Shown here: positions 12,115-34,523 of the stretch, piece by piece
How the letters are laid out: the number at the start of each line of letters is the position of its first letter
Numbering within the stretch: position 1 is the first letter of the stretch
Source: Thermoplasmata archaeon
GTDB lineage: Archaea; Thermoplasmatota; Thermoplasmata; RBG-16-68-12; JAFNFQ01
Length of the DNA: 44,258 bases
NCBI GenBank assembly: GCA_041489255.1
Contig: JBGPQV010000022.1
Span: 1-44,258, forward strand
Direction of reading: 5' to 3'
The notes under the pieces: generated by a model
Told to the model about the DNA's origin: nothing
Seen by the model: only the letters and a program-made list of their open reading frames with translations
The model's database searches: none
Position numbers and translations under genes: made by a program

Positions 12115-12140
12115 GTATTACTTATTCATTTCGGGCGAAT

Positions 12141-12330
12141 TGAGGGCGTCTGCCCCGATCACGATGCCTCCGACCTTCCCGCCAATCCTCATGAGCATCG
12201 CCTGGCGATGGAGGAGCAGCATCTTCAGGAATCTTGCGCTCTCGCTCTCGTCCACGACCGGGAAAGGCGGGCGCATGAAGTCCTTCACGGGCCTGTTCGC
12301 CATCTCGGCGTAGTCCTCTCCCCCCGCCAT
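12141..12330 (-). repeat. CBS-gene 3'-fragment repeat, copy R1
   Basis: Translates AGGEDYAEMANRPVKDFMRPPFPVVDESESARFLKMLLLHRQAMLMRIGGKVGGIVIGADAL; begins at the stop codon of the upstream gene. Confidence 0.95.
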
Positions 12331-12854
12331 CAACTGAAGAAGCGGTGAAGAGCAAGACGCAAGTGATACTCGAAATCCTCAACGTTGCCAAGGTATTCTA
12401 TCTGAGCTGCCCTTTTCTTCACTTCGGATTTCATGAGTCTGAAGATGCGAATGCATTCCTGGATGTCTTGGATGTCACGCTCGTCCAGCCTGCCAATCTT
12501 GGTGACGACAATATCCAGAGGATCCAGAGCTCTGAGTTCGATGTTCCTGAATTCTTTCATCTTCTTGCTTTTCGTCAGATAATCAGGGGGGAGGCATTGA
12601 GAGAAGACCCGACCATCCGCCCATGTATCGATCTTCATCCCATGGGGAATGGTCTTATGGACGCGGTCGAACAGAGCGATGTCCTCCCTTGGTCCGGTGA
12701 AGTCGATGTCCAGCGTCGAGGGTTTTGCATCTAGCAGAGTCATTGCAGTGCCGCCAACCGCCACCAGCGTGATTTGACGAGGCATCTCTCGGTCAATCAG
12801 CTCCAGGAAATCAAGGAGCCGCGATTTGTCTATCTTGTCAATGGGCGAGGGCAT
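12330..12854 (-). CDS. DUF6036-like nucleotidyltransferase (AbiEii/MenT-like toxin candidate)
   Basis: VAVGGTAM...STLDIDF and LDIVVTKIGR..RDIQDI motifs. Confidence 0.8.
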   Translation of the reverse strand: MPSPIDKIDKSRLLDFLELIDREMPRQITLVAVGGTAMTLLDAKPSTLDIDFTGPREDIALFDRVHKTIPHGMKIDTWADGRVFSQCLPPDYLTKSKKMKEFRNIELRALDPLDIVVTKIGRLDERDIQDIQECIRIFRLMKSEVKKRAAQIEYLGNVEDFEYHLRLALHRFFS

Positions 12855-13887
12855 TGTAGGTCCTCATGGTCTTCTCAATGCTTGCATCGTTCACTTTCAC
12901 TTCTCTCACATTAGATTTCTCCAAGAAGCGCAAGGCCCTGCGCAGATCGTCATCTTCTTTGTGCTTAGCCAGGGCGCTCAACAGCCCGTATAGCTCGCCC
13001 TGCAACCCATGCTTCCTAGCGAGGAATAGGAGCAGCGAGTAAATCGCTTTGTTCTTTGCGAGGATGACCGGGATCGCCTGGATTCGCCTCGCATTCCCAT
13101 TCAGGAGCAAAGCGATGACGATGTACTCGATTCCGATGTCCCCGCCTTCCCCTATCCTGGTTCCGAATTCCGTGTATCCGAACCTTGCGAGGTTGTGGAT
13201 GAGATCCTCTTCCGAAATCTTGGCGGGGATTGTCTCATCGCTGTCGAAGTGAATGCGGATGCCATGGGCCCAAGCGTTCCTGATTCTGTTCCAGAGGAGG
13301 TCCGAAGCCTGCATGGCGACGTGTCTGGACAGCATCTCTTTGAGCTGATTCCTGTCTCGCGCCGCCAGGAGCGCACGGAATTCCGCTTCATCTAGCATGA
13401 GGGGGTCAATCCTGATATTCAACCTGCCCTCGATCTCGCGAAGCTTCCTGAAGATGTCCTCGCTGAGACGTGCGTCGCTCGGGCAGTCCGGGAGCTGGAT
13501 GAGGAGCTCCGCGCGGTTCAGCTTGACATTCCTCTCCGCGTCTATCAAAGAGGCCTGGCATGTCGGCAATTCAGTGGAAATAGACTCGAGGAGGCGCCGC
13601 AGGTCCTTCCATTTCGCCACCAGGATGCGCTTCCGGCGGATCTCCATCTCCGTGAGCGCGTCTATCGTCTGCATATTGCCGATATTCAGGGAGACAAGCG
13701 AGGAATTTCCTGTCCGTTCTATTTCGATTATTCCTTCCTCGTGCATCCGCTGGAGCGAGTTGTAGATGTTGGGGTAATGGGCGGTCCCGTGCAGTCGATG
13801 GATGTCCCGGGTGAGCGCACTTATCGAGATTCTCTCGTCGGGGTCCCTCGAAAGGGCGTCTATGATCTTGAATTCCGTTTCATCCAT
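12838..13887 (-). CDS. wHTH-containing partner (antitoxin-like) of the nucleotidyltransferase
   Basis: N-terminal wHTH (ISISALTRDI..HYPNIYNSLQRM..EGII..GNS); overlaps the downstream NTase gene. Confidence 0.75.
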   Translation of the reverse strand: MDETEFKIIDALSRDPDERISISALTRDIHRLHGTAHYPNIYNSLQRMHEEGIIEIERTGNSSLVSLNIGNMQTIDALTEMEIRRKRILVAKWKDLRRLLESISTELPTCQASLIDAERNVKLNRAELLIQLPDCPSDARLSEDIFRKLREIEGRLNIRIDPLMLDEAEFRALLAARDRNQLKEMLSRHVAMQASDLLWNRIRNAWAHGIRIHFDSDETIPAKISEEDLIHNLARFGYTEFGTRIGEGGDIGIEYIVIALLLNGNARRIQAIPVILAKNKAIYSLLLFLARKHGLQGELYGLLSALAKHKEDDDLRRALRFLEKSNVREVKVNDASIEKTMRTYNALAH

Positions 13888-13920
13888 GTGAGATGCCTCT
13901 ATTTTCAGATTCTTGGCTTC

Positions 13921-13960
13921 TATAGCCTTTCAGCTATATGTCTATAGCTTTCAGGCTATA
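13921..13960. promoter_or_regulatory. Tandem palindromic operators
   Basis: TATAGC-N6-GCTATA occurs twice (13921..13938 and 13943..13960), just upstream of the wHTH/NTase operon. Confidence 0.75.
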
Positions 13961-14037
13961 AATGCTTTTCCACAATCCTATTCATAATGATCCGGGTGGA
14001 TTCCGATTTGGGGATCCCGGGGAAAGGGTGCATCGCC

Positions 14038-14814
14038 TCATGAAATGGCATAGGTCGCGTCGAGGTCAACGAGCATGCTACTCCAGCCGTCCACCGTTAT
14101 CCCATACCCTGTCAAGGAGATGATTCCGTTGTTCGTCGAGGAGGGCTCGTGGGACTCGGGCCAGATGAGGCTCTCAGCCGTCCTCTTGGTCCACCAATGC
14201 CTATCGAATTCCAAGTGGACGGTGAGCCCCGGCGCATCCGACCATGCCCAGGCCGTCCCCGAGGCGCGGCCGGTTTCCATGCTGCAGATGACGCTCCTCT
14301 CCTCGTCGAGCGTTGTCATGCTGGTGAGCGCGCAGCCGTCGGAGATGCGGTCGGGCGAGTTGCGCAGCGCATCGTAGTGCCAACGGAGGTTGAGGGCGAA
14401 CGGACCGTTGGAGCGTATCCTCAGCCCAGGGCCATTTGCCGTGTCCACGACATCCAGATCCCCCAGCTGCGCGTCCTCGAAGTCCACACCGGACACGACA
14501 CTCCCGCTGTCCACGATAGGTATCGGCACGAACAGCGTGAAATTCCTTGTGACGCTGGTCACCCTGACGCGGTAGCTATAGGAGTATTCCCGCCCGGAGG
14601 GCAGCCCTGACACTTGCGCGTGATCCGCGTAGACCCAGATAGGGATGACGAACGCGACGACGATGAGGATTACGATCAGGACCTTCTCTTTCTTGGTCGA
14701 CTGCCTCCTCCCGCCACTGGCGGATTCGGTCTGCTTCGCACCAGGGCCTCCCCCCGCCATGGGCTTTGGCGTGGCGTCGGTGGCGGATCCGGTCGGCTCA
14801 TCTTCCGATTTCAT
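14038..14814 (-). CDS. Hypothetical single-TM membrane protein
   Basis: 258-aa ORF, KKEK followed by a hydrophobic helix and a beta-rich domain. Confidence 0.7.
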   Translation of the reverse strand: MKSEDEPTGSATDATPKPMAGGGPGAKQTESASGGRRQSTKKEKVLIVILIVVAFVIPIWVYADHAQVSGLPSGREYSYSYRVRVTSVTRNFTLFVPIPIVDSGSVVSGVDFEDAQLGDLDVVDTANGPGLRIRSNGPFALNLRWHYDALRNSPDRISDGCALTSMTTLDEERSVICSMETGRASGTAWAWSDAPGLTVHLEFDRHWWTKRTAESLIWPESHEPSSTNNGIISLTGYGITVDGWSSMLVDLDATYAIS

Positions 14815-14826
14815 CGATTCATCCCC

Positions 14827-15222
14827 TCATGAGTACGGCATGTAGATGAACACCCTCGCATCATCTGGGTCCAGCAATCCGAAGGACTTCTGCCACGTCG
14901 TATTGAGGTGGCCGCCGCCGCTTGCGAGCATCCCCAGCCGAAGCTCGAATTCCTCTTGGTGGCCTCCATATGTGAAGACGACAAAACGGATGACCGGGAG
15001 CCCGTCGACCGGCCCGTAATTCGTGATGCCCAGGAGGACTGTGATGTTGCCGGGCCCGGGCGCAGTCGAAGGGCTGTCCATGACAATCGAGTAGGAGTGG
15101 TCGAGGGTGTAGCGGGCGCGCAAGCTTGTGCCTAGTCCCGCGGAGACGATGATAAATTCGAAGACGATAAACACCGCCAGGAAGGTTATGATGAGGCTCG
15201 CTTCGCCACGTCTCTCCATCAT
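14827..15222 (-). CDS. Hypothetical protein with N-terminal TM/signal helix
   Basis: 131 aa; hydrophobic N-terminus, then an Ig-like stretch (ITVLLGITNYG). Confidence 0.65.
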   Translation of the reverse strand: MMERRGEASLIITFLAVFIVFEFIIVSAGLGTSLRARYTLDHSYSIVMDSPSTAPGPGNITVLLGITNYGPVDGLPVIRFVVFTYGGHQEEFELRLGMLASGGGHLNTTWQKSFGLLDPDDARVFIYMPYS

Positions 15223-15306
15223 TCTTCAGCTCCCTATAGTCGTCTGCAGCGTGGAGGTCGATTATGAATATTGCGGAAGCAGGGAGCGCGCTGCGCGGTC
15301 TGGATT

Positions 15307-15464
15307 TCGCGCGTTTCTGGCCCGCGTCTTCCTAAGTCCAGGACATCCGCCCATGTCACGATGCCCCCGACCTTCCCGCCGATCCTCACGAGCACGGCCT
15401 GGCGGTGGAGGAGCGGCATCTTCAGGATCCCGGCACTCTCGCTCTCGTCCACGACCGGGATAGG
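15307..15464 (-). repeat. CBS-gene 3'-fragment repeat, copy R2
   Basis: Translates PIPVVDESESAGILKMPLLHRQAVLVRIGGKVGGIVTWADVLDL. Confidence 0.95.
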
Positions 15465-15591
15465 AAGGCGCGAGAAGGCTTTCCGTCGGTTCTGTCCACG
15501 GCGATAATAAGCCACATGTCCGTTGCCCATTAATATGACGAACGAAAGCAGATGTATCCGTTACCTATAAGTATAATGAACAAAATGTGAT

Positions 15592-16209
15592 ATGTCGATG
15601 AATGTGGACAAGCAGGCTGACTTCCTCCCTTCCACGTACGGGGACAAGGTCGATCGGATCTACAGGGTCCTCCTGAGCCGCAAGATCAAGAAGATGACCT
15701 GGTACAGGGTCGCGAAGGAAGCGGGGGTCGGATACAGCTGGGCCTACAGGGTGCTCAAGGACCTGGAGAAAGGCCACATCATCAAGGGTTCCGAGATCAA
15801 GAACCCGAAGGCTTTATTCAGACGCTGGGCCGGCCGGGACGACAGGAGGGTATACCGTGAGTACAACATTCAGGACCCGGCCAAGGTGCTGAAGAAGGCC
15901 AAGATGGACTATGCATTCACTGGCTACTTCGCGGAGAACCTGGTCGGGCACTACATGTTCCCGCGGTTCTTCGAACTGTACATCCACAGTGAGGACGCAG
16001 CCAGATGGCACAGGTCTCTGTCAGAGAGCGGCTACGTGGGGAAGGGGAACGTCCAGATCATGCTGGCCGACGAGCACGTCTTCTTCGAGAGGGGGAAGGT
16101 GGACGGCTGGCCAGTCGTGTCTGTCCAGCAGCTCATCGTCGACCTGTATCGCACTGGAGCGGAGTGCGCCGAGGCGGCCGACCTCCTCGTGGAGAAGGAT
16201 TACCGATGA
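15592..16209 (+). CDS. HTH + AbiEi-like antitoxin candidate
   Basis: HTH (WYRVAKEAGVGYSWAYRVLKDLE), YAFTGYFA, and a PVVSVQQLIVDLY...EAA ending typical of type IV TA antitoxins. Confidence 0.8.
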   Translation: MSMNVDKQADFLPSTYGDKVDRIYRVLLSRKIKKMTWYRVAKEAGVGYSWAYRVLKDLEKGHIIKGSEIKNPKALFRRWAGRDDRRVYREYNIQDPAKVLKKAKMDYAFTGYFAENLVGHYMFPRFFELYIHSEDAARWHRSLSESGYVGKGNVQIMLADEHVFFERGKVDGWPVVSVQQLIVDLYRTGAECAEAADLLVEKDYR

Positions 16210-17009
16210 CCGAGGAGCTGTACGACACGCAGGAGACGCGGATCGCGCTTGAAGCGCTCGGCGCGCTCTCGGCGGCCCTCCCGGAGCCGTTCGTGGTCCT
16301 GGGTGGGTGGGCCGTGTACCTCACGGTGCTCGAGTCATACCGGCGGGAGCATGGCGCCCCATACCTCGGGTCAAGGGACGTGGACGTCGGCTTCCACGTG
16401 GACCCCGCCATGAGCGTGGATGCCCTGAGGACAAGCACGTTCTCGAAGGCGATCGAAATCGTGAGAGGCCTTGGCTACGTCCCGATCGGATCCTTCCGTT
16501 ACTGCAAGTTCATCCACAAGGGGACCGGCGAGGTCCTGACGGAGGAACAGGCGAAGAGCGTCTCCATGATCGACCTGTTCTATGTCTACGTGGACATGAT
16601 GGTGGACCGGATACATCCACAGCACGACCGGGTGTTCAAGGTGAAAGCGCTTGACGAGCCGGTGTTGGGACGGGTGTTCGACGAACGGTGCGGCGTGAGC
16701 GCACGCCTTGGCGACGTCTCGGTCGTCATGCCCTCGCCGCATCTGCTGCTCGCGTCGAAATTGAGGTCGATCCCTGCCCGGCAGAAGGGCGACAAGATAC
16801 TCAAGGACGCATGCGACATCTACGCTGTTATCTGGCACTCGCCGGTGAGCTACGACAGGATACTCTCAGCGGTGCGCGGGGAGTATCCCCGGGAATGTGC
16901 GGCCGCTCTGGCGGCCATCAGCGACGAGATTGCCGAGCGTGCGGCCAGACATCTCGGGGTCGAGTTGGAGGCGTACCTCGGCGTGGTCCGGAAGCTGCAG
17001 ACCGGTTGA
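16206..17009 (+). CDS. Nucleotidyltransferase, AbiEii-like toxin candidate
   Basis: VVLGGWAV..GSRDVDVG, LLLASKL and KILKDACDI motifs; true start MTEELY at 16206 (ATGA overlap). Confidence 0.85.
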   Translation: MTEELYDTQETRIALEALGALSAALPEPFVVLGGWAVYLTVLESYRREHGAPYLGSRDVDVGFHVDPAMSVDALRTSTFSKAIEIVRGLGYVPIGSFRYCKFIHKGTGEVLTEEQAKSVSMIDLFYVYVDMMVDRIHPQHDRVFKVKALDEPVLGRVFDERCGVSARLGDVSVVMPSPHLLLASKLRSIPARQKGDKILKDACDIYAVIWHSPVSYDRILSAVRGEYPRECAAALAAISDEIAERAARHLGVELEAYLGVVRKLQTG

Positions 17010-17322
17010 ACCCCGGGAATCCGAGCGAAAGCCTCCCGCTGGAAGGCATGGCGGGAGCGTCTCAGAACCACCGAGCGATTTCCTCCATCGTCCTGCCGAT
17101 GTCTCCTCTCGAGGATCGTGCCAGCCAGGCGACGAGACTGATTGGCGGATTGACTGCAGAAGCATTCGGGACAACTCGCGGAACTCAGCAACTTGCAGCG
17201 ATGCCATGGAGTTTCACCGCCGCGGCGGTTAGATATATGCCGAGGCCGATTATCTGACGGTCGGCGACAGGGGAATCCCGCGATGTACCACCGAACGTCA
17301 TCGGGCCACCGGATGTGAGAGA

Positions 17323-18210
17323 TTGCAGTTGCCAGCCAGAGATGTCGACCTGTTCTACGACCTCTACTTCCCATTCCTGGCCTACGCGAACGAGAAGACA
17401 CACGCGCTCCCGGGACAGTCATTGCCTGAGAAGCCGAAGCGAATGTACATGGAAGACGCCAGCGCAATCCGCGACCGTCTCTATGAGCGGCCGGAACTGA
17501 TAGACTCGTACATCTCCGAGAACCCGCATCGCCTCGGACAGGCCCATCTCGACATCGTCAGGAGCTGGAGGGGCTACGTGAAGGGCAGGTTCGTTGTCAT
17601 GCGCCACCTGAAGGAGCACACAGTTTTCCTGTCGACCGAAGGGCAGCAGATGGCCTTCGGCATCCTCGGGTTGAGAAAACCCCTTGAAGCGATTCTCGGC
17701 CAGCGTCTGCCGGTGTTGGTCGATGCGGTGCTCCTGCCCTTCCGCGACCGCATAGTCTACGACGGCATCTTGCATCCTTACAGCGTCCTCTTTGGCGCGG
17801 GCATCAGGCGCGAGATGAAGGAGGGGTACGAGATGGCGGTGGCTAAGTACGGGATCGTCACGTCTCTCCCCGTCCCGGGCGAGGCCAGAGACCTGGAGGA
17901 CGCCGAGAGGCTGAAGCTGTACCTCAGGGACGAGCACAGCAGGGAGAGGTACGCGGAGGACATAGAGAGGCTCGTCAGGAAGAGCCCGGATCTCCTCGCG
18001 ATATACTACAGGGAGATGGGCAAGGTCCACGCCAGGCGGCTTGGGAAGGAGCTGAGGTCGCTCGGGATATCGGACGCGTGGTTTGGGGTGATCGGGGATA
18101 TGGTCGTGGCCAGTGGGCCGTCTAAGGAAGACTTGGAGAGAACCTTGGAGCGCGTCCTCCCCGCGGACAGGCTCGGGCACGTCCACGTGTTCCGCGTGCG
18201 CGCCAGATAA
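17323..18210 (+). CDS. Hypothetical protein
   Basis: 295-aa ORF with coding-like codon usage and an LLPFRDRIVYDG motif; adjacent to the pRiA4b ORF-3-like gene. Confidence 0.75.
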   Translation: MQLPARDVDLFYDLYFPFLAYANEKTHALPGQSLPEKPKRMYMEDASAIRDRLYERPELIDSYISENPHRLGQAHLDIVRSWRGYVKGRFVVMRHLKEHTVFLSTEGQQMAFGILGLRKPLEAILGQRLPVLVDAVLLPFRDRIVYDGILHPYSVLFGAGIRREMKEGYEMAVAKYGIVTSLPVPGEARDLEDAERLKLYLRDEHSRERYAEDIERLVRKSPDLLAIYYREMGKVHARRLGKELRSLGISDAWFGVIGDMVVASGPSKEDLERTLERVLPADRLGHVHVFRVRAR

Positions 18211-18308
18211 CCGTCCGCGGACGGTCGTGGCGGGGTTCGCGCATCGCAGCACGATCGCCTCGGGTCGAGACGGTCTCTTCCGGCGAATGCACATCTCCGT
18301 CGTGGCGA

Positions 18309-19028
18309 GTGGTAAATACGAAGACGGAATTACAGTCGCCCATGAAGAGAAAGTTCACCCTTGGGGAGTGCGTGCTCTGTGGGTCGCGTCATGACAAGGC
18401 CGGCATGGGGCGGCATCTCGGATCGTGCTATCCGGGGCGTGGGCTGAAGACGGAAGCGCGGGCAGGGAGGAATCGCCGTTCATTCCTGCTCCTGGTCGAG
18501 GCGCGTCATCGGCCGCAATACTGGATGTACTTGGGCGTGCAGGGCAGGCAGACGCTTGGGGCCCTGGACACAGTCCTCAAGGACACCTGGCTCGAATGCT
18601 GTGGACACCTGAGCGCGTTCTCCATCGAGGGGGAGCAGTACGACGCGATGCCTGAAGACGAACCTGGCCTGAGGAGCATGGGATCCAGGCTCGACAGCGT
18701 TCTCGCTCCCGGCCTCAGGTTCTCCTACGAGTACGACTTCGGGTCGACGACGGAGCTTGCGCTGAGGGTGATTCTGTCACAGGAGGGCGATGACCCCCGG
18801 AATCCGATTCGCATCCTTGCCCGCAACGAGCCGCCTGAGATCGCCTGTGCCATATGCGGTGGTGCCGCCACCCAGGTCTGCCGACAGTGCTTCGATGAGG
18901 CGAATGGAAAGGCCTGGCTCTGCCATCGGTGCGTGAAGAGGCACGGGTGCAAGGATGCTGATACCGTCCCGTTGGTGAACTCACCGCGCACCGGGGTGTG
19001 TGGGTACATTGGGGGCCATGGAGACTAG
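18309..19028 (+). CDS. Plasmid pRiA4b ORF-3-like (IS1096 passenger TnpR-like) Cys-rich protein
   Basis: WLECCGHLSAF, YEYDFGSTTEL, ARNEPP, multiple CxxC and NSPRTGVCGY motifs. Confidence 0.85.
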   Translation: MVNTKTELQSPMKRKFTLGECVLCGSRHDKAGMGRHLGSCYPGRGLKTEARAGRNRRSFLLLVEARHRPQYWMYLGVQGRQTLGALDTVLKDTWLECCGHLSAFSIEGEQYDAMPEDEPGLRSMGSRLDSVLAPGLRFSYEYDFGSTTELALRVILSQEGDDPRNPIRILARNEPPEIACAICGGAATQVCRQCFDEANGKAWLCHRCVKRHGCKDADTVPLVNSPRTGVCGYIGGHGD

Positions 19029-19083
19029 ATCTCAAATCCTGGCGGCTCTCGCAGATATATGATCCCATCGGAGACGGGCGCGT

Positions 19084-19273
19084 GGCATTGACATCCAATT
19101 GACCTCTGGGTCGCTACCGTTCTTGGTCAGCGTATCGCGCGCTTCTGGCCTTCGCCTTCCTGAGGTCGAGGACGTCCGCCTAGGTCACGATGCCTCCGAC
19201 TTTCCCGCCGATCCTCACGAGCACGGCCTAGCGGTGGAGGAGGAGCATCTTCAGGATTCCGGCACCCTCGCTC
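19084..19273 (-). repeat. CBS-gene 3'-fragment repeat, copy R3 (two internal stops, includes 3' UTR)
   Basis: Translates GAGILKMLLLHR*AVLVRIGGKVGGIVT*ADVLDLRKAK. Similarity with R6 continues about 30 bp beyond the stop codon at 19114..19116. Confidence 0.95.
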
Positions 19274-19379
19274 AATCCTCGCCCGCAAAGAGTGCTTCCT
19301 AGAAGGGCTCCAGAGGATTCTATCAAACCAGCTCTCAGGGACCTCATCTGTCTGCGAAGAAATTAAGTACATGCGATAT

Positions 19380-19416
19380 GTTCACTATTTAGCGAACAAT
19401 CGATTAAGTAGTGAAC
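19380..19416. promoter_or_regulatory. Inverted-repeat operator upstream of the HTH gene at 19421
   Basis: GTTCACTA...TAGTGAAC, with an internal near-copy TAGCGAAC. Confidence 0.55.
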
Positions 19417-19420
19417 GGCC

Positions 19421-20125
19421 ATGAATCCCATTGCCCCGACTACATACACGGCCCTGCTGGCGGTGCTTACCAAGAAGGAGACCTCGCAACGCGATCTCGC
19501 ACGGGAACTCGGGGTCTCGCTCGGACAGACTAACAAGGTGTTCCAATGGCTTGAGCAGAACCGCTTCGTCGAGAGGACCGCGGCCACGGGCCGAGCGACC
19601 GGTAAGGCGAAGCGGGACGTCTACGTCCTCACGAATCCGACCGGTCTGCTACGGGCGGTCAGCCTCTTCAGGGACATGAGCCGCCTCAGGCTCTTCACCA
19701 TGGCGGTTGACACACCGAGGGGGGACCTGCTCTCCGACCTTCGAGAGCACTATGTCATCTTCTGCCTCGGGACCGCCCTCGAGAGGTTCAGCAAGTTCTA
19801 CAGGTCCGACGAGGTCTCCTTTTACGCGGTCGGCGGTGCCGGACGCGGCCGGGCTGACGAACTGCGTGAGAGCTTGGCTGCAAGGAGAGAGGGAATAACC
19901 CGCCTGGCGTGCTACTCCCTGGACACTCGGACGCACGGACGCAGGGAGCGCGAAGACGTGAGACCCCGGGAGGCCATCGACAGGTTGACGGGCTGCGGCT
20001 TCGCCGAGAAGACCACGAAGGGAGCATTCACCACCAAAGTGCAGACCGTGGTTGACCTGTTCTGCGACGGGAAGGCCTTCGCCGCGAGAGACCTCCTGAA
20101 GGAGCTGTGGGGGATCAACCTCTGA
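19421..20125 (+). CDS. wHTH (MarR-like) protein resembling type IV TA antitoxins; no partner toxin follows
   Basis: TSQRDLARELGVSLGQTNKVFQWLE HTH, plus FCLGTAL and QTVVDLFC motifs. Confidence 0.8.
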   Translation: MNPIAPTTYTALLAVLTKKETSQRDLARELGVSLGQTNKVFQWLEQNRFVERTAATGRATGKAKRDVYVLTNPTGLLRAVSLFRDMSRLRLFTMAVDTPRGDLLSDLREHYVIFCLGTALERFSKFYRSDEVSFYAVGGAGRGRADELRESLAARREGITRLACYSLDTRTHGRREREDVRPREAIDRLTGCGFAEKTTKGAFTTKVQTVVDLFCDGKAFAARDLLKELWGINL

Positions 20126-20138
20126 GGGCGGAGGACGA

Positions 20139-20303: not shown

Positions 20304-20321
20304 CTTCCTCCCGAGGGGAGA

Positions 20322-20483: not shown

Positions 20484-20662
20484 GTGGTTTTCCCCCAAGG
20501 AAGCCGTGGATTTCTTTCTTGCGATGACGATATGATATTGCGGGCTACTTAATCGCTTTGCCGTTTATGGCTTCATGCCGGAATCAGCTGGGACCGCCCG
20601 TTAAGCCTGGCGGCGCAGTGATAGACCTGGAAGCACGTGGATCGAAGCAGTAAGGCGTTGGA

Positions 20663-22340: not shown

Positions 22341-22357
22341 GTCGGATGGATGATCGC

Positions 22358-26699: not shown

Positions 26700-26858
26700 G
26701 CCCTCACCAACGTCCTTGGTGCCCTCAATAGAGTCCGGATATTCAATATTTCCCTCATGGACTCGGATAGAAAGCTTTCCGCGCCTTGCGTCCAGCATGC
26801 AAGGTCTTCTGGGCCGGAGGAACTGATGAATGACGGTTTGGACTTTTCCCGCCGATTC

Positions 26859-27068
26859 CTACGATCGTATCTGGGCGACAAGGGCCAGCGGCATCTCCCT
26901 GTGGTTCTTCCATCTGAGCAGCCTCTCCTGCGACGGCGCGACGAGGAGGGTGTGGAACTCGTTCCCCTCGCTCATCCTCCCGTCCCAGAAGTCCGCGTTC
27001 CGGTCCCAGACCTCCCTTGTCTCCCTGCTCGGGTCCCCTGGATTGCTTGGCAGTCCCTTCTCGCTCAT
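26859..27068 (-). pseudogene. Internally deleted class I SAM methyltransferase gene (N-terminus fused in frame to C-terminus)
   Basis: WDRNADFWDGRMSEGNEFHTLLVAPSQERLL (the pre-motif-I region of MTases) joins WKNHREMPLALVAQIRS*, which aligns to WGNYREIPPVLVARMRL* at 24421. Confidence 0.75.
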
Positions 27069-27137
27069 GTGCATCAGCGCGGGCGGAACGGATGGATGGG
27101 AATTAAGACTGCCACTGGTCTATGACAGGAGCCGGAA

Positions 27138-27302
27138 TCAATGCATCCTGATGCCAATCATGAGCCAACGCTTCCAGCTCTCGGCGTGGAACGAGACGGG
27201 ACGCCCCTTGTAGAAGAAGTCCGCGGTCCTCCCCGTGCCCATGCAGAGCATGCACTTCCCGTCGTCACAGAAGCAGGTCTCCCCCTCGACCTTATCTGTC
27301 AT
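27138..27302 (-). CDS. Small Cys-rich ORF (CxC..CxxCxGxG), possibly a remnant
   Basis: MTDKVEGETCFCDDGKCMLCMGTGR...; only one CxxCxGxG motif. Confidence 0.35.
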   Translation of the reverse strand: MTDKVEGETCFCDDGKCMLCMGTGRTADFFYKGRPVSFHAESWKRWLMIGIRMH

Positions 27303-27449
27303 CGCAGCGTCTCGGGGTGAGTCCCACTGCGCTTTGGAAAGCATATCGCACTCGTCCGCAAGCCTCTCCATTGCATTGCAGTTGCCCGGGGAAACCGGGT
27401 GAAGGGGCTATGGCTATGCGCGGTCATTTTCCGCTGGGGTGTTGTATGG

Positions 27450-29207
27450 CTATCTGTACCGGACGTACGGGATGCCGAACACGTTCGAGCAGTGCGCGAC
27501 CTTGAGGTCGTCGTTCGTGGTATCGTAGTAGCTGATGAGAGGCAGACCGTCGACACCGATCGTCACGGATGAGTACAAGCCGACGTTGCCCGTGGTGTCG
27601 AGTGCCGTTATTGTGGCGGCCGTGCACGCGACATCTGAGCAGTGAGCGACCTTGAGGTAGTCGTTCGTGGTGTCGTAATAGCTGATGAAGCCGAGACCGT
27701 CGGCGCCTATGGTCAGGGACGTGTGCCAACCTACATCGCCCGTGGAGTCGAGCGTGTAGTTGGTGGCGGTCGTGCACGCGGTGTTGGAGCAGTGAGCGAC
27801 CTTGAGGTCGCCATTGACGAGCTCGTAGTAGCTGATCAGGCCGAGGCCGTCAACGCCAATAGTCATCGACGTATGTCGGCCGACAAGGCCCGCGGTGTCG
27901 ATCGCGGAGACCGTTGCGGTCGTGCAGTTAACATCGGAACAGTGAGCGACCTTGAGGTCGTAGTTGGTTTCATCGTAGTAGCTGATGAGGCCCAGACTGT
28001 CCACGCCGATGGTCACGGATGTGTAGTAGCCTACATCGTCCAGGGCGTCGAGCGTGTAGTTGGTGGCGGTCGTGCAGGGGAGGTCCGAGCAATGAGCGAC
28101 TTTCAGGTCGCCGTTCGTGAAGTCCCTGTAGCTGATCAGTCCGAGGCCGTCGACGCCGATTGTCAATGACGGGTATGAGCCCACGTCGCCCGCGGTGTCG
28201 ATCGTGGTTACGGTGGCGGCCGTACAGGCGACGTTGGAACAGTGAGCGACCTTGAGATTGCGGTTCGTGAAGTCCCTGTAGCTGATCAGTCCGAGGCCGT
28301 CGGCGCCGATCGTCAGGGATGTGAGTTGGCCGACATCGCCCGCGCTGTCGAGGGTGGAGGTAGTGCCGGAAGTGCACGGTACGTTGGAGCAGTGAAAGAC
28401 CTTGAGGTTCCCGTTCATGTCGTCGTAGTAGCTGATGAGGCCGAGGCCATCGACGCCGATTGTCAGGGATGTGTATTGGCCGACATCGCCCGCGGTATCG
28501 ACGCTCGTTAGTGAGAACACGTCGCGTCCGATCCCGATCCCTGCCGGCCCCTGAGGTCCCTGCGGCCCTTGAGGCCCCTGTGGACCCTGGATCCCCTGTT
28601 CTCCCTGCGGTCCTTGAGGCCCCTGTGGACCTTGCAGCCCCTGCATTCCCTGTTCTCCCTGTGGGCCTTGCGGGCCCGGGTCGCCCTGAGGTCCCTGCGG
28701 ACCTTGAGGACCTTGTGGCCCCTGAATCCCTTGCTCTCCCTGTGGACCTTGCGGGCCCGGGTCGCCTTGAGGTCCCTGCGGACCTATCGGTCCCTGGGCT
28801 CCGGTAGCTCCCTGCGGTCCCGCAGGCCCTTGTGGTCCCTGCAGGCCTTGCAGCCCGGTTGGCCCCTGTGGACCCATGCAGTCAAGCACGTTGACGACGA
28901 GGTCCCCGTTCCTGTCCTCCGTCGCGGGGTCGCCAATTCCGTTCCCGTTCAGGTCCCAGCAGCTGATGCCATCCACGCCGTCCGCACCATCATCGCCAAT
29001 AGGCCCCTGCTGTCCCTGCGGTCCTGCCGGTCCTTGGATGCCGGTGGATCCCTGCTGCCCCGCCGCTCCCGTCACACCCGCCGGTCCCGGAATCGCGGCG
29101 GACAGGACGAGCGCTGCGGCGGCTAGGAAGACAGCGACGACACTCAGAACCTTGGACTCGCCTCCCGATCTAGGAGAGCTTGAACCCTCCGACTTCTGAT
29201 CTGACAT
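27450..29207 (-). CDS. Collagen-like + 7-repeat propeller protein (paralog 2), with a Cys-bounded acidic insert
   Basis: Same architecture as paralog 1; the Gly-X-Y tract is interrupted by [28 protein letters not shown]. Confidence 0.92.
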
Positions 29208-29266
29208 GCAACGGAATACGGCTTGTCACATAATAGTTGTCCACAAGGGGGTCGTCGTATTGGAGC

Positions 29267-29293
29267 TCAACGCGGGCAGTAGACGGCGACGAG
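29267..29293 (-). pseudogene. 27-bp 3' remnant of the partner membrane-protein gene
   Basis: Reads LVAVYCPR*, versus LVAVYYPR* at 31238 and 2242, at the same distance upstream of the collagen start as in paralog 3. Confidence 0.8.
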
Positions 29294-29408
29294 CCATCCA
29301 TGGTGCGTCTCGGTGGTGTCTGGCCTGCAACAGCCTCGCTCCGTGTCCTCCGCGAGGTGTCCCTGACCTGCGCCTGCTCAAGACTCCTTCCGCCGAGGTC
29401 TCATCAGG

Positions 29409-31178
29409 CTACCGGTACCGGACATAGGGGATGCCGAAGACGTTGGAAAGGTGCGCGACCTTGAGGTCGTCGTTCGTGCTATCGTAGTAGCTGACGAGGC
29501 CGAGGCCATCGACGCCAATCGTCACGGAAGTGTAATAGCCCACACTGCCCACGGTGTCGAGCGTGGAGAGGGTGGCGGTCGTGCATGCGATGTCCGAACA
29601 GTGCGCGACCTTGAGGTTCAAGCTCCCGGCGTTGTGGTAGCTGATGAGGCCTAGGCCGTCGACGCCGATCGTCACGGATGTGTACCGGCCCACGATGCCC
29701 ACGGTGTCGAGCGAGGAGAGGGTGGCGGTCGTGCATGCGATGTCCGAACAGTGCGCGACCTTGAGGTCGCTGTTCAGCTGGTCGAAATAGCTGATGAGGC
29801 CGAGGCCGTCGACGCCGATCGTCACGGACGTGTGAAGGCCCACAGTGCCCGCGGTGTCGAGCGTGGAGAGCGTGGCGGTCGTGCACGCGATGTCCGAGCA
29901 GTGAGCGACCTTGAGGTCGTAATTGGACTCATCGTCGTAGCTGATCAGGCCAAGGCCGTCGACGCCGATTGTCAATGACGTGTAGTAACCTACATCGCCC
30001 ACGGTGTCGAGCGTGGAGGTGGTGGCGGCCGTGCACGCGATGTCCGAGCAGTGGGCGACTTTCAGGTCACCGTTCGCGATGTCCCGGTAACTGATGATGC
30101 CGAGGCCGTCGACGCCGATCGCGACGGACGGGTATGAGCCCACATCGCCCGTGGTATCGATCGCGGTTATGGTGGCGGTCGTGCAGGCGACGTCCGAGCA
30201 GTGAGCGACCTTGAGGTCGCGGTTAATGTTGTCGTAGTAGCTGATCAAGCCGAGGCCGTCGACGCCGATTATCACGGATGTGAACATGCCTACATCGCCC
30301 GCGCTGTCGACCGTGGAGGTTGTGGCGGCAGTGCACGCGACGTTCGAGCAGTGGGCGACCTTGAGGTCGTGGTTAGTGTTGTCGTAGTAGCTGATGAGGC
30401 CGAGGCCATCGACGCCGATTGTCGCGGACGTGTACTCGCCCACATAGCCCGCGGTGTCGAGGCTTGTGAGGGAGAACACATCGCGTCCGATCCCATTCCC
30501 CGCCGGTCCCTGAGGTCCTTGTGGCCCCTGAGGTCCTTGTGGCCCCTGAGGTCCCTGGGGTCCCGGATCTCCTTGCGGCCCTTGAGGTCCCTGCGGACCT
30601 GGATCACCTTGCGGGCCCTGCGGACCCTGAGGTCCTGGGTCTCCCTGTGGACCCTGCGGGCCCTGAGGACCAATCTCGCCCTGGATTCCCTGCGGGCCCT
30701 GAGGTCCTGGGTCTCCCTGTGGTCCCTGCGGGCCCTGAGGACCAATCTCGCCCTGGATTCCCTGCGGGCCCTGAGGTCCTGGGTCTCCCTGTGGTCCCTG
30801 CGGACCTGGATCACCTTGCGGACCCTGCGGACCTGGGTCTCCCTGCAGGCCTTGCGGCCCGGTCGGTCCCGTTGACCCCTGCAGGCCCTGTGGTCCCTGA
30901 GGTCCGGTGTCTCCCTGCAGGCCCTGAGGGCCAGCGACCCCCTGATCGCCTTGAAGCCCCTGAAGACCTGTATCGCCTTGGAGTCCCTGCGGTCCTGTGT
31001 CGCCCTGGACGCCTTGGGAACCTTGCGGCCCCGTCGTTCCCTGTACCCCCGCGGGTCCCGGCAACGCGACCGATAAGATGAGCGCGACAGCCGCGAGCAG
31101 GACCGCGATGATACTCAGCGCCTTGCCTATGCCTCCTGATCTAGGAGAGCTTGAACCCTCCGACTTCTGATCTGACAT
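29409..31178 (-). CDS. Collagen-like + 7-repeat propeller protein (paralog 3)
   Basis: TM helix, uninterrupted Gly-X-Y tract, seven 50-aa repeats, ending GIPYVRYR like the other paralogs. Confidence 0.92.
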
Positions 31179-31237
31179 GCAACGGAATACGGCTTGTCAC
31201 ATAATAGTTGTCCATACCGGGGTCGCCGTGTGGTTGC

Positions 31238-31831
31238 TCAGCGAGGATAGTAGACGGCGACGAGGGACGCGCTGTCGAACCGGTCGCCTGAATCGGCGCC
31301 GAGGGCCATGACCCCGTTCACGTAGAACGTCACCGTGGCGGCCGCGTCGACTGAGAAGGGATGCAGGAGGGGGACGGTCGTGTAGTGGTATGGATCCGTC
31401 GGGAGCGAGAACGGGACTGACACGACCCCGGTGTAGTTGTTAAACGTGCACTCCGTGGAGGAGGTCGCGAGGACGATGCGCGCCTCGTCGCTCACCCCGG
31501 ATTCGTGGTTGATGCCGACGCCGACCGTCGCGCTGACCACGACCGTTCCGGCGCCGGGGACGGAGATGGAGACCTCCGCCCCGGGGTAGTGCGTGCAGGT
31601 CGAAGTGATCGTCACCGGTCCGCCGACGGAGTGCTGCGCCATTACGTTCCTCGGCGCCCAAAGTCCTGGGGCGATGAACGCGACGACGCGGGCGAGCACG
31701 GAAAGGACGACCGCGACCGCGCTCAGGCGCGTGGCGGTCTGGTATTCCCGAGATGGCGTCTTCTTGCGACCCTTCGTCGCTTCCTTGGTCGAATCCCGAC
31801 CAGATTCGTCTTCGTCACGTCTGGAGGGCAT
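31238..31831 (-). CDS. Single-TM partner protein, paralog of 2242..2835
   Basis: Start MPSRR by homology; near-identical core (STCTHYPGAEVSISVP, FNNYTGVVSVPFSLPTD). Confidence 0.88.
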   Translation of the reverse strand: MPSRRDEDESGRDSTKEATKGRKKTPSREYQTATRLSAVAVVLSVLARVVAFIAPGLWAPRNVMAQHSVGGPVTITSTCTHYPGAEVSISVPGAGTVVVSATVGVGINHESGVSDEARIVLATSSTECTFNNYTGVVSVPFSLPTDPYHYTTVPLLHPFSVDAAATVTFYVNGVMALGADSGDRFDSASLVAVYYPR

Positions 31832-32050
31832 GAGGGAGCGATTGCGGCCTCGGCGCAAGTACTTTCCGACTGAGTCAGCGCGCATGCTGCGACCTCCAAG
31901 ATGGTCGAAGTTGACCCTATTGTCCCGCAGCACCCTTCGATGTTTGGCTGGAGGGTCTTGCGGGGTACGTGTCCCCATTCGAATGACCACGGGATGCTGG
32001 CTCACAATGCACTTCCGTGAGGTGCGGCGCCACGCGTCCGTGCCGACACT

Positions 32051-32248
32051 TTAGCGGTGATTCGTCCTCTTCTTCGCCTTTCTGATATTGAGTACATCCG
32101 TCCAATTCACGATTCCACCTATCTCCCCGCCAATCCTCACCATCACGGCCTGGTGGTGCAGCAGCAGCATCTTCCGGATCCCGGCGCTCTCGCTGTCGTC
32201 AATGATTGGGAAGGGAGCGCGGATGAACTCCCTCACGGGCCCGTTCGC
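32051..32248 (-). repeat. CBS-gene 3'-fragment repeat, copy R5 (most diverged long copy)
   Basis: Translates ANGPVREFIRAPFPIIDDSESAGIRKMLLLHHQAVMVRIGGEIGGIVNWTDVLNIRKAK. Confidence 0.92.
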
Positions 32249-33078
32249 TTCTTGACCCACTCTTGAAACAGTTTCACGGATTTCGGCGGCAAGTCGGTGC
32301 GTACGTTTACTGGCAATCCTAGATGATCATAGATCTTCTTCGTGAGATTCTCTTGGCCGAGAGGATAGATTTGTGTCTTGAAGGTCCATGTAAAGCCGTT
32401 GGCTTTGTAGACTTGATCCAAGTAGGGCTTATTCCATCTCACCGCGAATACAGGCGTGATTCCGAGATGCTCACACATTCGCAGTTTGATTGAGACCTCG
32501 TCTTTCGGCACCACGGCCAGCGTGTTCTTGACTTCAACGCCGATTACAAGTCGGTCAGAGTGGTGTTTGGCGATGAAGTCCAAATTGTGTCCGGTTTCCG
32601 TCCAAACAACGCCTTGATAGGAGTTTGTGTTCTCCCCCACAATATCGAACTGCTGAGCGCGGAGTTCAGCCTTCACCAGCGCTTCGAGGTGGCCGCCTAG
32701 CGCTTTCGTAATAATGGGGTCTGACATTTTATCGATCAGGGAACAAGCCCGCTTTGCGCGCGTTTTGATGATTCGGGTCTCCTTGTCGGTAACGAGCGTG
32801 GCGTTGTGGTAGAAGATGACCTTTGGCTGGCGCTTCGTTTTCGTGGTGAAGCTCTTTAGGCGCCCGTCTTCAACGAGTATTCCGAGTGCGTCCGAAACAA
32901 CCCAAGAGAAGAATTCGCCCTCGAGAAGTACTTCCAATTGACCCTTGTAATAGGTTTTCTTGTTGGGTCGGCCTTTGCTATCCCGGAAAAACCTCCCAAT
33001 GCGTTCTTGCGCTTTCTGGACGGCCGGGTCTGCGCGTGGGGCGAAAGGGTGTCCGTCGGGTCCGGGTTGTCCGTCCAT
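32233..33078 (-). CDS. wHTH-like + PD-(D/E)XK nuclease-fold protein
   Basis: GGHLEALV...LDFIA...IGVEVKN catalytic pattern; flanked by repeats R5 and R6. Confidence 0.8.
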   Translation of the reverse strand: MDGQPGPDGHPFAPRADPAVQKAQERIGRFFRDSKGRPNKKTYYKGQLEVLLEGEFFSWVVSDALGILVEDGRLKSFTTKTKRQPKVIFYHNATLVTDKETRIIKTRAKRACSLIDKMSDPIITKALGGHLEALVKAELRAQQFDIVGENTNSYQGVVWTETGHNLDFIAKHHSDRLVIGVEVKNTLAVVPKDEVSIKLRMCEHLGITPVFAVRWNKPYLDQVYKANGFTWTFKTQIYPLGQENLTKKIYDHLGLPVNVRTDLPPKSVKLFQEWVKKRTGP

Positions 33079-33214
33079 AAACTCGGGTCCCTTGAATTGT
33101 TGGAAAGAGGGTTGTGTTGAGTATATAAAGGGTATTTAAGGAATCATACGGACGTTCCTTCCCCTATTGAATACAACATGTGTCGGTGAGCTGTTCAATT
33201 ATATGGAGAGGTGC

Positions 33215-33487
33215 GGCACTGACTGCCGATCGACTTCTGTGTCGCTACGGTCCTCGGTCAGGACGTCTCGCCCTTCCGCCCTTCGTCTTCCTGAGGTCGA
33301 GTACATCCGCCCAGGTCACGATGCCCCCGGCCTTCCCGCCGATCCTCACGAACACGGCTTGGCGGTGGAGGAGCAGCATCTTCAGGAATCTTGCGCTCTC
33401 GCTCTCGTCCACGACCGGGAAAGGCGGGCGCATGAAGTCCCTTACGGGCTCGTTCGTCATCTCGGCGTAGTCCTCTCTTCCCGCCAC
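33215..33487 (-). repeat. CBS-gene 3'-fragment repeat, copy R6 (longest, includes stop and 3' UTR)
   Basis: Translates AGREDYAEMTNEPVRDFMRPPFPVVDESESARFLKMLLLHRQAVFVRIGGKAGGIVTWADVLDLRKTK...*. Confidence 0.95.
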
Positions 33488-33609
33488 CTTTTCAGTCAGG
33501 TCCTAAGTGCAAATCGATTGACGTCGAAATCTTCTTGGCGATTGGCGCCCTCAAGTCCCTGGGATGGCGGGAGTGCGATGAACCTATCACGGGACTGTAG
33601 GTTTCCTCG

Positions 33610-34080
33610 TCAATGCTTTCTCCTGACGGGTTCAAGGGTGATCGTGGATTCCGAGTCGTCGAATGTCACCCTGTATAGTCTGAAGACCGGATCCCTCCCG
33701 ATCAAGATTGGCGTGTCCCCTTCCTTGGGTATGCTTGCCACGACATCTCTGAATATGAAGTAGCGCCCGCCGCGCCCGATGGTCAAATCCACTTGAGCTG
33801 AAAAGCGAGGCACCTCGTGGCTCACGACTCTCATCGGTTTCTTCTCGTCCCGCAGCTCCAATTCCAGGACCTTGGCCACGCCCATCGGCAACACGAGACC
33901 ATCAGATCCCGAGTCAAGAATCCCTTCTGTCGGGGAGGTTTTCCTGCCCCTCCGCTCAAAGGTGCAGGGCAACACCGGGTAGCTATACATTTCCATAGAG
34001 CCCGTGGCGGGATTCGTGACCTCTTGTATCTTGTACTTGAACACGAATCTGAGCGGTTCGCCGCCTTCCAACGGACTCAA
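33610..34080 (-). CDS. Retropepsin-like aspartyl protease
   Basis: ILDSGSD and ILIGRD motifs. Confidence 0.88.
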   Translation of the reverse strand: MSPLEGGEPLRFVFKYKIQEVTNPATGSMEMYSYPVLPCTFERRGRKTSPTEGILDSGSDGLVLPMGVAKVLELELRDEKKPMRVVSHEVPRFSAQVDLTIGRGGRYFIFRDVVASIPKEGDTPILIGRDPVFRLYRVTFDDSESTITLEPVRRKH

Positions 34081-34319
34081 TAGAAAGAGGCTCCCCCGGA
34101 AAGAATTCTCGTGACTAGGACTTGCTCAGGCGGGTATTTCGCGGCCTCTCGGAAGACCTTCTCAGCGCTGTCGCTTGAGACGATGACGCGGTCGTTCAGG
34201 ACAAGGACCCATTTCCCCTCGACCCCCCGGACTCTTCCGGTCTCGATGGGCTTCATTCGGGTGCCCGCCGACCCGCTGCTCGCGTGGCGTTTCTTGTGTT
34301 CGGTCACTGATATCTTCAA
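34077..34319 (-). CDS. DUF5678-like small protein
   Basis: GKWVLVLNDRVIVSSDSAEKVFREA..YP pattern; coupled to the aspartyl protease gene, a commonly seen pairing. Confidence 0.75.
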   Translation of the reverse strand: MKISVTEHKKRHASSGSAGTRMKPIETGRVRGVEGKWVLVLNDRVIVSSDSAEKVFREAAKYPPEQVLVTRILSGGASFY

Positions 34320-34397
34320 TGCGTCAGGGCCCTTATCAACATTGGCATCGGGCGTAACACCTCAGGACCGGAGTAGACGTCATCCTCAATCAAGATG

Positions 34398-34523
34398 ACG
34401 CGCATTTCCTGCATTCGCCTTCCTCGCGTCCAGGTCATCCGCCCAGGTCACGATGCCTCCGACTTTCCCGCCAATCCTCACGAGCACGGCCTGGCGGTGG
34501 AGGAGCAGCATCTTCAGGATCCC
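34398..34523 (-). repeat. CBS-gene 3'-fragment repeat, copy R7
   Basis: Translates GILKMLLLHRQAVLVRIGGKVGGIVTWADDLDARKAN. Confidence 0.95.

Follow-up and report, generated by a model that had tools for sequence, protein, structure and literature searches.

Relics of a CBS-domain gene between the gene modules of a variable region in a Thermoplasmata archaeon

Large variable regions of archaeal genomes are mostly of unexplained origin. In this work we have analyzed one in which the joints are legible, namely a 44,258-nt stretch of DNA (here called the window) that is the entire contig C22 (GenBank: JBGPQV010000022.1, assembly GCA_041489255.1) of G000, a metagenome-assembled genome (MAG) of an archaeon of the class Thermoplasmata. 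Seven co-oriented repeats, remnants of the 3′ end of a gene for a helix-turn-helix (HTH) protein with CBS domains, separate discrete gene modules in this stretch and are called relics below. The explanation that we favor, and to which we assign about an even chance of being correct, is that of an additive island jointed by relics, whose modules move via recombination between relics, mainly homologous today, and which was founded by integrations into a once-living HTH/CBS gene. The window would then be most of a flexible genomic island of the additive kind, larger than 45 kb, and modules would enter, leave and move by a single crossover within a relic, either through Campbell-type pop-in and pop-out of circles or through unequal exchange between the arrays of different cells or chromosome copies. 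The present traffic would be carried mainly by host homologous recombination and gene conversion between relics (60-290 bp, on average 86% identical), and the founding copies would most likely stem from circular elements integrated into the living gene by means of an integrase whose gene has since been lost or is no longer linked. In this explanation the founding integrations, the circles as intermediates and the passage of modules between cells are inferred. If it is true, searches for islands that are keyed on integrases, tRNA genes or intact targets miss such loci, and homologous recombination at short relics is underrated as a way in which uncultured archaea acquire defence, stress and surface genes cassette by cassette.

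The MAG G000 comprises 2.74 Mb in 41 contigs (59% GC, 96% completeness). It was compared with G001, the sister MAG from the same genus, with contigs of JGI metagenomes (L-numbered, 11 of them carrying relics) and with Logan data from other studies (X6 and X9), which consist of contigs only and break at relics; the Logan contigs give no usable depth, circles, starts or ends, and stretches left uncovered in X6 and X9 carry no evidential weight. Both MAGs are population composites. The alpha subunit of methyl-coenzyme M reductase was not found, and the host is taken as a non-methanogenic, uncultured sediment archaeon. Scans of the window for Rfam families and for tRNA genes returned none of either.

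Relic copies and their parent gene

A repeat search of the window returned a family of seven copies, D13, with a 60-nt core starting at positions 12141, 15338, 19167, 22282, 32089, 33298 and 34430 (73-100% identity to the reference copy), and two longer families, D11 and D12, that connect subsets of these seven. All copies lie on the minus strand, where they translate as the C-terminus of a CBS domain (...ESESAGILKMLLLHRQAVLVRIGGKVGGIVTWADVLDLRK...). A 23-nt core motif was matched four times at up to 3 mismatches, with 0 matches expected in 100 shuffles. The seven co-oriented copies had been listed in the initial annotation of this DNA at coordinates that proved right within a few bases; its statement that every copy keeps RIGGKVGGIVTWAD holds approximately, copy 1 reading ...GGIVIGADAL, copy 4 GIDGRIGGIVSWADIL and copy 5 RIGGEIGGIVNWTDVL.

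When a DNA profile of the relic was run over the whole of G000, eight copies were found at E ≤ 2.1e-7, the next match having E = 0.052. Seven of the eight are those on C22, all on the minus strand, and the last one (C9:95631-95732) lies at a contig end, so that the relics are confined to one locus and one contig end of the MAG, and none is inverted. Transposase-like ends of the rve type were seen by eye beside the C9 relic, no family test being run on them, and a relic-like match at C14:6268-6317, near a pair of recombinase genes, was dismissed as chance (E 0.18, apparently coding). With nine relics on four contigs of G001 and 18 on the 11 metagenome contigs the total comes to 35 relics in 17 sources, and in 10/10 sources that have at least two copies these lie on one strand.

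Such a restriction to one strand per contig, and to one locus and one contig end, rules out a transposon or a miniature inverted-repeat transposable element (MITE); no terminal inverted repeats or target duplications were noticed at the relic boundaries, and no inverted-repeat search was run. An assembly artefact might be suspected from the breaking of MAG contigs at relics and from two contig ends of G001 that fold back. At the latter the flank of a gene called wHTH119 lies both forward and inverted (G001:C49:1-259 and G001:C19:18759-19117), which is probably an assembly artefact at the repeat, and the G001 orders nearby need care. The relic-module junctions, however, recur in independent assemblies (contigs L025 and L026 cross relic 2 at 98-100% identity, L022 spans relic 3, and Logan contigs also hold such junctions), by which an assembly chimera is ruled out. 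The relics are moreover coding fragments with a third-position bias, described below. An artefact or a MITE-like dispersed repeat is therefore a hardly credible account of the array: in place of scattered MITE copies, one identical order in all relatives or a chimera, any of which had been named in advance as fatal to the interpretation of the locus as an array, we found copies on one strand, differing orders and independent junctions.

Positions within a relic are numbered from a zero point at the second base of the V codon in the motif GGIVTW. Relic 1 (12139-12333, anchor 12161, from -168 to +19) holds an open reading frame (ORF) of 71 amino acids (aa), the start of which overlaps the stop of a DUF6036 gene. 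Relic 2 (15291-15483, anchor 15358, -125 to +63) has identical junctions in the independent contigs L025 and L026, and relic 3 (19029-19273, anchor 19187, -86 to +158) contains two in-frame TAG codons. The shortest copy is relic 4 (22282-22341, anchor 22302, about -39 to +20), of which about 20 residues are left and whose 3′ end abuts the catalase module. Relic 5 (32019-32248, anchor 32109, -139 to +90) is the most diverged, with 73-84% identity to the others, while relic 6 (33215-33504, anchor 33318, -186 to +103) is the longest in the window and has an open 80-aa ORF. Relic 7 (34383-34534, anchor 34450, -84 to +67) completes the series. All seven are on the minus strand, and so is a coreless remnant at 17082-17102, which consists of a 3′ arm only, from +21 on, and marks the start of a TrmB/nucleotidyltransferase module. 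The relics of the window are thus 60-290 bp long, and those numbered 1, 5 and 6 keep open ORFs of 69-80 aa. Over all sources the 5′ ends lie between -186 and -7 and the 3′ ends between about +7/+20 and +158.

The match of the copy-6 peptide to the Pfam CBS family is weak (E 0.0018), its 19 bits falling short of the 24-bit cut-off. When 5.8 billion protein clusters were searched for longer proteins the sole return was P0001, a CBS protein of 160 aa (Pfam CBS E 1.3e-14) without HTH, whose C-terminal half is 76% identical to the copy-6 peptide; a second protein search gave five proteins at E ≤ 1e-15, four of them fragments of 91-125 aa and only P0001 longer than 125 aa. Residues 9-149 of P0001 are in turn 32% identical to a protein on contig C1 of G000 that has an XRE-type HTH (HTH_3 at E 9.8e-14) and two CBS stretches. 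Because copy 6 resembles P0001 and P0001 aligns with the C1 protein, the relic is, by this chain of resemblance, the last CBS domain and the 3′ flank of an XRE-HTH/CBS-pair gene, in agreement with the parentage first proposed for it. The intact parent gene was found neither in the window, from which it had been reported missing, nor elsewhere in G000 or G001, and relics outnumber any near-intact parent 35 to 1. Among 401 genomes of the class (a tally that includes the unpublished G149, on which alone no claim is based) the best match outside the genus is at most 39% identical, and more than two matches were obtained only in G000 (7) and G001 (4), that is in 2/2 genomes of the genus versus 0/399 others. 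In viral contigs neither a P0001 relative nor a match to a degenerate core pattern was found.

At the first, second and third codon positions the relics have 0.083, 0.056 and 0.137 mismatches to the consensus per site, respectively. It follows that some of the divergence arose in living genes and that the relics are not just duplicates which drifted in place.

Hybrid relics and the order of modules

Relics border at least 20 different modules in the two MAGs and the 11 metagenome contigs, so the description of the copies as boundaries of discrete gene units has held. Modules that are 88-100% identical are found next to different neighbours from one source to another, among them catalase, nucleotidyltransferase (NTase)/winged HTH (wHTH) pairs, HEPN-MNT, PRiA4 and surface proteins. 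The order on G001:C49 is wHTH119 flank, relic, MarR module, relic, TrmB/NTase module, relic, Zn-ribbon gene and xseAB, and that on G001:C19 and L022 is relic, catalase, relic, methyltransferase. Catalase stands alone between two relics in G001 and L022, in the latter directly behind the DUF6036 module, and shares a module with MarR in the window; it has three different upstream and two different downstream neighbours. The wHTH119 gene (119 aa, 11717-12076, minus strand), which adjoins relic 1, is a recurrent downstream neighbour of a relic on G001:C28, G001:C49 and L024, and on G001:C28 a relic directly follows the Kelch gene. Contig L026 is 98.2% identical to positions 13359-17103 of the window, with HEPN-MNT replacing PRiA4 and a 295-aa ORF; PRiA4 (window, L022) and HEPN-MNT (L026) are joined to the coreless TrmB arm at the same base, +21. 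Since L027, 99% identical to positions 1-1630, continues to a further relic, the array extends past the left end of the window. In Logan contig X6, which comes from a different study, position 22493 is joined to 34065 via 1188 other letters. Modules in other orders are thus carried by relatives in G001, in the L-numbered contigs and in X6, which is the outcome that the initial annotation had set as a test of its own reading.

Relics that share an upstream module have the same 5′ boundary, and those that share a downstream module have the same 3′ boundary. Each relic is a hybrid, its 5′ part belonging to the upstream module and its 3′ part to the downstream one. This topology would be the footprint of a single crossover between a gene piece borne on a circle (from -Y to +X) and a resident copy, and it fits site-specific and homologous recombination alike.

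Mapping of the crossovers by runs of mismatches has a low resolution, with three to four informative pairs. L029 and G001:C49 differ by 2 mismatches between -300 and -32 and by at least 12 from -31 on; relic 7 of C22 and L024 are identical from -147 to -31 and different thereafter; relic 1 and copy G001:C49a have common variants from about -38; and a TAG at +6 is incompatible with any single crossover point. At least three exchange points lie 5′ of -31. Zn-ribbon flanks that are 67-75% identical carry relics 81-88% identical, a flank that is 99% identical carries a relic only 90% identical, and the mean pairwise identity of 24 relics is 0.86. Because the exchange points vary and the relics do not diverge in step with their flanks, it is shown that relics undergo homologous exchange or gene conversion with one another. 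A site-specific component or origin is possible.

A purely internal rearrangement, starting from an old tandem duplication of the CBS tail and proceeding by unequal crossing-over, deletions and illegitimate insertions with no circles or transfer, would agree with the wide variation of both relic boundaries, with the coreless fragments (3/35 profile matches and the TrmB arms), with a module (H) inserted beside a relic and with the duplication of a collagen locus within the island. We consider it improbable, since near-identical strains differ by the replacement of whole relic-bounded modules (L026 versus the window), the GC content of the modules ranges over 51-61% versus 59% in the genome, and the third-position excess points to divergence in separate living genes.

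Head of the array and candidate recombinases

To the right of the modules the window holds a conserved head flank (40046-41946). On the minus strand this flank has a Zn-ribbon gene in truncated form (40046-40273), and on the plus strand it has xseA (40434-41672) and xseB (41680-41946). The arrays of G001:C49 and L029 start beside xseBA, and the stop codon of the Zn-ribbon gene is followed directly by a relic from -84/-91; the 5′ boundary of relic 7 likewise falls within the final bases of a Zn-ribbon gene, which is also its place in the head copies of G001:C49, L029 and L024. Diverged versions of this Zn-ribbon/relic unit are held by L028 and L027, and L014 and L022 keep remnants of it inside arrays, the head junction being found in four diverged versions (G001:C49/L029, L028, L027 and C22/L024). 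In no source does the array begin with an intact CBS gene. Even the copy at the head is a relic, and the hot spot downstream of a CBS gene that had been postulated earlier gives way to a relic from -84/-91 behind a Zn-ribbon gene. Module H sits between relic 7 and the truncated Zn-ribbon gene and is missing at that place in G001:C49 and L029; as no second relic flanks it, it would have arrived by another route, beside a relic. The earlier proposal that every copy is the scar of one acquisition is too simple, because relics exchange parts, some junctions are coreless and the entry of module H took place next to a relic, not through one.

The right end of the window (44119-44258) is 99-100% identical to G000:C35:2-141 and G000:C7:1-132, and since both of these are contig ends it appears to be a repeated element resembling an insertion sequence. 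This end begins an ORF that by eye resembles OrfA of the IS3 type, and it follows a palindrome (44072-44134), which likewise forms the end of the longest 3′ arms of relics in C9, G001:C49 and L029.

Six-frame searches with PF00589 gave 4 matches in G000 and 2 in G001, those with PF00239 gave 10 and 7, and those with PF16795 gave none in either MAG. None of the three families was found on C22, at the C9 end or on contigs C19, C28, C49 and C80 of G001. Pfam revealed no recombinase or transposase domain on 44 scanned ORFs of the window, where none had been seen in the first place, and among 64 array ORFs (these 44 and 20 from related arrays) it revealed one DDE_5 transposase (L020) and no integrase. 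Ten window ORFs without a family, including one of 425 aa, gave only weak HTH matches with NCBIfam and PHROGs, and an overlapping set of ten, again with the 425-aa ORF, gave only weak candidate-defence matches with PADLOC. For the 425-aa ORF no PDB sequence family was found, and the single-sequence AlphaFold model was unusable (pLDDT 38.5).

Candidate recombinases able to act in trans are encoded elsewhere. G000 and G001 share a serine recombinase of 288 aa (G000:C4:77478-78344) and a serine-recombinase trio at 95-99% identity, with no tie to the array. Trios of this kind (about 411, 364 and 323 aa) lie at G000:C25:26733-29815, G000:C28:14907-17953 and G001:C36:48947-52095, the C25 trio being 95-98% identical to that of G001 and the C28 trio a 67-73% paralogue. 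Serine and tyrosine recombinase genes are adjacent at four loci (G000:C14:7324-9414, G000:C18:17634-19608, G001:C15:12347-14336 and G001:C1:22171-24460). The 430-aa tyrosine recombinases of the C18 and C15 loci are orthologues, 54% identical and with syntenic flanks. They were rejected as recombinases of the array: the G001 gene is followed by tRNA-His, for which reason we assign them to another integration site.

A dedicated integron-like platform, with the relic behind Zn-ribbon/xseAB as landing site, the other relics as cassette sites and a specific recombinase encoded elsewhere, could draw on the recurrence of the head junction in four diverged versions, on the higher identity of the relics (81-88%) than of the adjoining gene (67-75%), which selection on a DNA site could explain, and on the 35 to 1 excess of relics over any parent. 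This is unlikely in our opinion. No recombinase is co-localised with the array, the relic sites have no hairpin (folding of 7/7 window copies as single strands gave z-scores of -0.39 to +1.49 versus shuffles), the cassettes are multi-gene, occupy both strands and bring their own regulators, the crossover points vary, arrays were seen in one genus only (2/2 genomes versus 0/399 others of the class with more than two matches), and gene conversion accounts equally well for the conservation of the relics. Doubtful, too, is the reading in which the relic would have outlived its gene as a recombination module, an archaeal analogue of attC/attI, with a landing pad behind Zn-ribbon/xseAB where relic-bearing circles, whatever genes they hold, would be captured and shuffled by an unlinked recombinase (one of the conserved serine recombinases, for example) or by host homologous recombination alone. 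If this reading is true, cassette capture was invented independently of integrons.

A stronger rival, possible though not probable, is tandem accretion. In that scenario elements with a tyrosine or serine integrase of their own would have inserted serially at a short core (about -7 to +28) in the 3′ end of the CBS gene and decayed to integrase-less remnants like those called cis-mobilizable elements (CIMEs). An integrase whose gene lies elsewhere, or on a plasmid or virus left unbinned, would still move them. Co-oriented 3′-end repeats around foreign modules are its standard footprint (PMC5704250, PMC3146451, PMC6563490), and many recombinases are present in trans, the 288-aa serine recombinase and the serine-recombinase trio being 95-99% conserved between G000 and G001. 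The stretch from -7 to +19 is kept in 32/35 relics, the other 3/35 profile matches being coreless fragments, and an imperfect dyad in it, CCTGGGCGGA / TCGACCTCAGG, was seen by eye; of a dif-like 11-6-11 site for the host Xer recombinase, this dyad is all that was observed. Yet this core lies at the midpoint of the longest unit (from -186 to +158), so that relics eroded at random on either side would retain the same stretch, and conservation has no peak there, being flat at 0.85-0.92 from -70 to +30. Tandem accretion is further opposed by the long and variable 5′ arms (-186 to -7), unlike the identity blocks of att sites, by the exchange points 5′ of -31, by the lack of an integrase among the 64 scanned array ORFs and of any recombinase family on the array contigs, and by the lack of a copy in viral contigs. 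No intact target stands at the head in G001:C49, L029, L028 or L027, whereas accretion normally regenerates its target; a textbook accretion array, in particular, is ruled out by the missing target together with the missing integrase in any module.

Several points weigh against the relic-jointed island moved mainly by homologous recombination, and the first two of them speak for tandem accretion. Between +19 and +21 there are at least four junction types of independent origin (the start of catalase, the flank of wHTH119, and the joining of PRiA4 and of HEPN-MNT to the TrmB arm), a clustering expected of site-specific crossover and not of homologous recombination alone. From the short catalase module it follows that the piece in common measures only about 27 bp (-7 to +20), which is att-sized and short for homologous recombination. 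Homologous recombination alone cannot explain how a new module first acquires its relic arms. An unrecognised recombinase is possible among the ORFs without a family, e.g. those of 425, 295 and 281 aa. Module H and several coreless junctions show that illegitimate events have also shaped the island. No circle, excision joint or transfer event was observed in read-level data consisting of contigs that break at relics. Two contigs of G001 begin with the same flank and then diverge, and some of the module orders may be strain mixtures.

Cargo of the modules and relation to known systems

The modules are 0.9-9.7 kb long and hold one to seven genes on both strands, with wHTH regulators of their own. 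Module B (12334-15290, 56% GC) encodes a DUF6036 nucleotidyltransferase with a 349-aa wHTH protein, a 258-aa protein and a 131-aa membrane protein. Module C (15484-19028) is a fusion of two modules, the first (15484-17102) with a TrmB-wHTH gene and a 334-aa NTase-like ORF, the second (17103-19028) with the 295-aa ORF and a PRiA4_ORF3 protein. A MarR-type wHTH, two small ORFs and catalase form module D (19274-22281). The large module E (22342-32018) has ORFs of 242 aa and 280 aa (HTH_20), a Kelch/Ig surface protein, two collagen-repeat proteins and a 255-aa ORF. Module F (32249-33214; 51% GC versus 59% in the genome) is a single 281-aa ORF with no family match, in which a possible D...EVK nuclease motif was noticed by eye. 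Module G (33505-34382) encodes a DUF5678 protein and a weak aspartyl-protease-like ORF, and module H (34535-40085) a SHOCT membrane protein, two membrane ORFs, the 425-aa ORF, an MmcB-like nuclease, PIN and SocA/Panacea. Across the arrays the cargo comprises toxin-antitoxin-like and NTase/wHTH pairs, catalase, methyltransferase, surface proteins and candidate defence genes.

Three collagen-repeat paralogues of about 585 aa lie on the minus strand (445-2205, 27450-29207 and 29409-31178; Pfam Collagen E 1e-25 to 1e-28). They hold 150-bp tandem repeats, and each is found beside a partner of 197-255 aa (2242-2835, 31238-32005); the collagen locus, an unusual archaeal cargo, is duplicated inside the island at 72-86% identity (families D14-D16). 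Within module H the SocA/Panacea-like, PIN, MmcB-like PD-(D/E)XK nuclease and 425-aa proteins are encoded by an overlapping four-gene operon (37307-40015, minus strand). The 425-aa protein (37307-38584) has a CxCxxC motif, and its ESM Atlas neighbours are unnamed bacterial and archaeal clusters of about 400 aa. On the left, at 3100-7380 (minus strand), lies the gene for a surface protein of 1426 aa that combines DUF7948, SBBP beta-propeller and PKD domains; its orthologue in G001 has only 321 aa, the internal domains being deleted or collapsed in assembly. An AAA_14/DUF4143 ATPase (8995-10248, minus strand) matches the PADLOC candidate defence family PDC-S01 (E 8.5e-28) and adjoins a ParE/DUF7557 pair and a DUF4258/MazE-like pair (7449-8742). 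Large multi-gene clusters, possibly defence systems, lie beside relics at L029:7679-17286 and G001:C28:12234-19977; in one of them a radical-SAM/Fer4_12 protein is accompanied by ORFs of 696, 891 and 755 aa, and in the other there are ORFs of 647, 1095 and 825 aa.

Among the described systems that come closest to an array of this kind are the ssrA islands of Dehalococcoides, which share with it a tandem arrangement, co-oriented 3′-end repeats and a strain-variable number and content (PMC3146451). Some of those islands lack an integration module and have been treated as cis-mobilizable (McMurdie et al. 2011, PMC3146451). They differ in having an intact ssrA at the head, repeats that are uniformly 20 bp long and, in 16 islands, an integration module with a serine recombinase (PMC3146451). 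In the locus analyzed here the target was a protein-coding gene and is gone, the repeats of 60-290 bp vary at both ends, no integrase is present and the host is an archaeon.

Tandem accretion at a protein gene's 3′ end is also known for ICESt1-type elements, which have fda as their target. CIMEs resemble the present modules in being integrase-less, in having attL and attR derived from the 3′ end of the target and in accumulating in tandem, but they adjoin an intact target and are moved by the integrase of a related integrative and conjugative or integrative and mobilizable element (PMC5704250). Here no helper, relaxase or intact target was seen, a helper outside the MAG being possible, and the crossovers are not confined to the core. 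The tycheposon islands of Prochlorococcus likewise combine partial target copies, degenerate elements and niche and defence cargo, and their older elements are displaced inwards as others integrate, one after another, at a single site; their targets are tRNA genes, and 937 elements carry integrases, versus none here (bioRxiv 10.1101/2020.12.28.424599).

In the initial annotation the array had been called integron-like, an interpretation that is partly supported. Clusters of attC sites lacking an integron integrase (CALINs) also consist of cassettes split by a repeat of variable length, are shuffled in relatives and have no integrase in cis; attC sites, however, are non-coding imperfect palindromes that are bound by IntI as folded single strands (PMC9024848), while the relics are remnants of a coding gene without a hairpin. 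Integrons have been described from archaea (bioRxiv 10.1101/2022.02.06.479319). Integron cassettes are mostly single promoterless co-oriented ORFs, in contrast to the multi-gene modules on both strands with regulators described here. An integron in the strict sense is ruled out by the absence of IntI, by the lack of hairpin folding in 7/7 sites and by the modules of one to seven genes on both strands. Elements with tyrosine recombinases also form arrays by re-use of a site, as reported in 2019; those are large and integrase-bearing, have short att sites and occur in ones or twos (PMC6563490), versus at least seven small integrase-less modules, long relics and no live target in the present case. 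No paper combining a CBS domain, an integrase, attB and archaea was found in the literature, a search that left outside the supplementary target tables of PMC6563490 and of the tycheposon preprint. The locus differs from the known arrays in its target, which is dead wherever it was seen, its long relics with both ends ragged, the lack of an integrase in its modules and an exchange that is demonstrably homologous in part or more.

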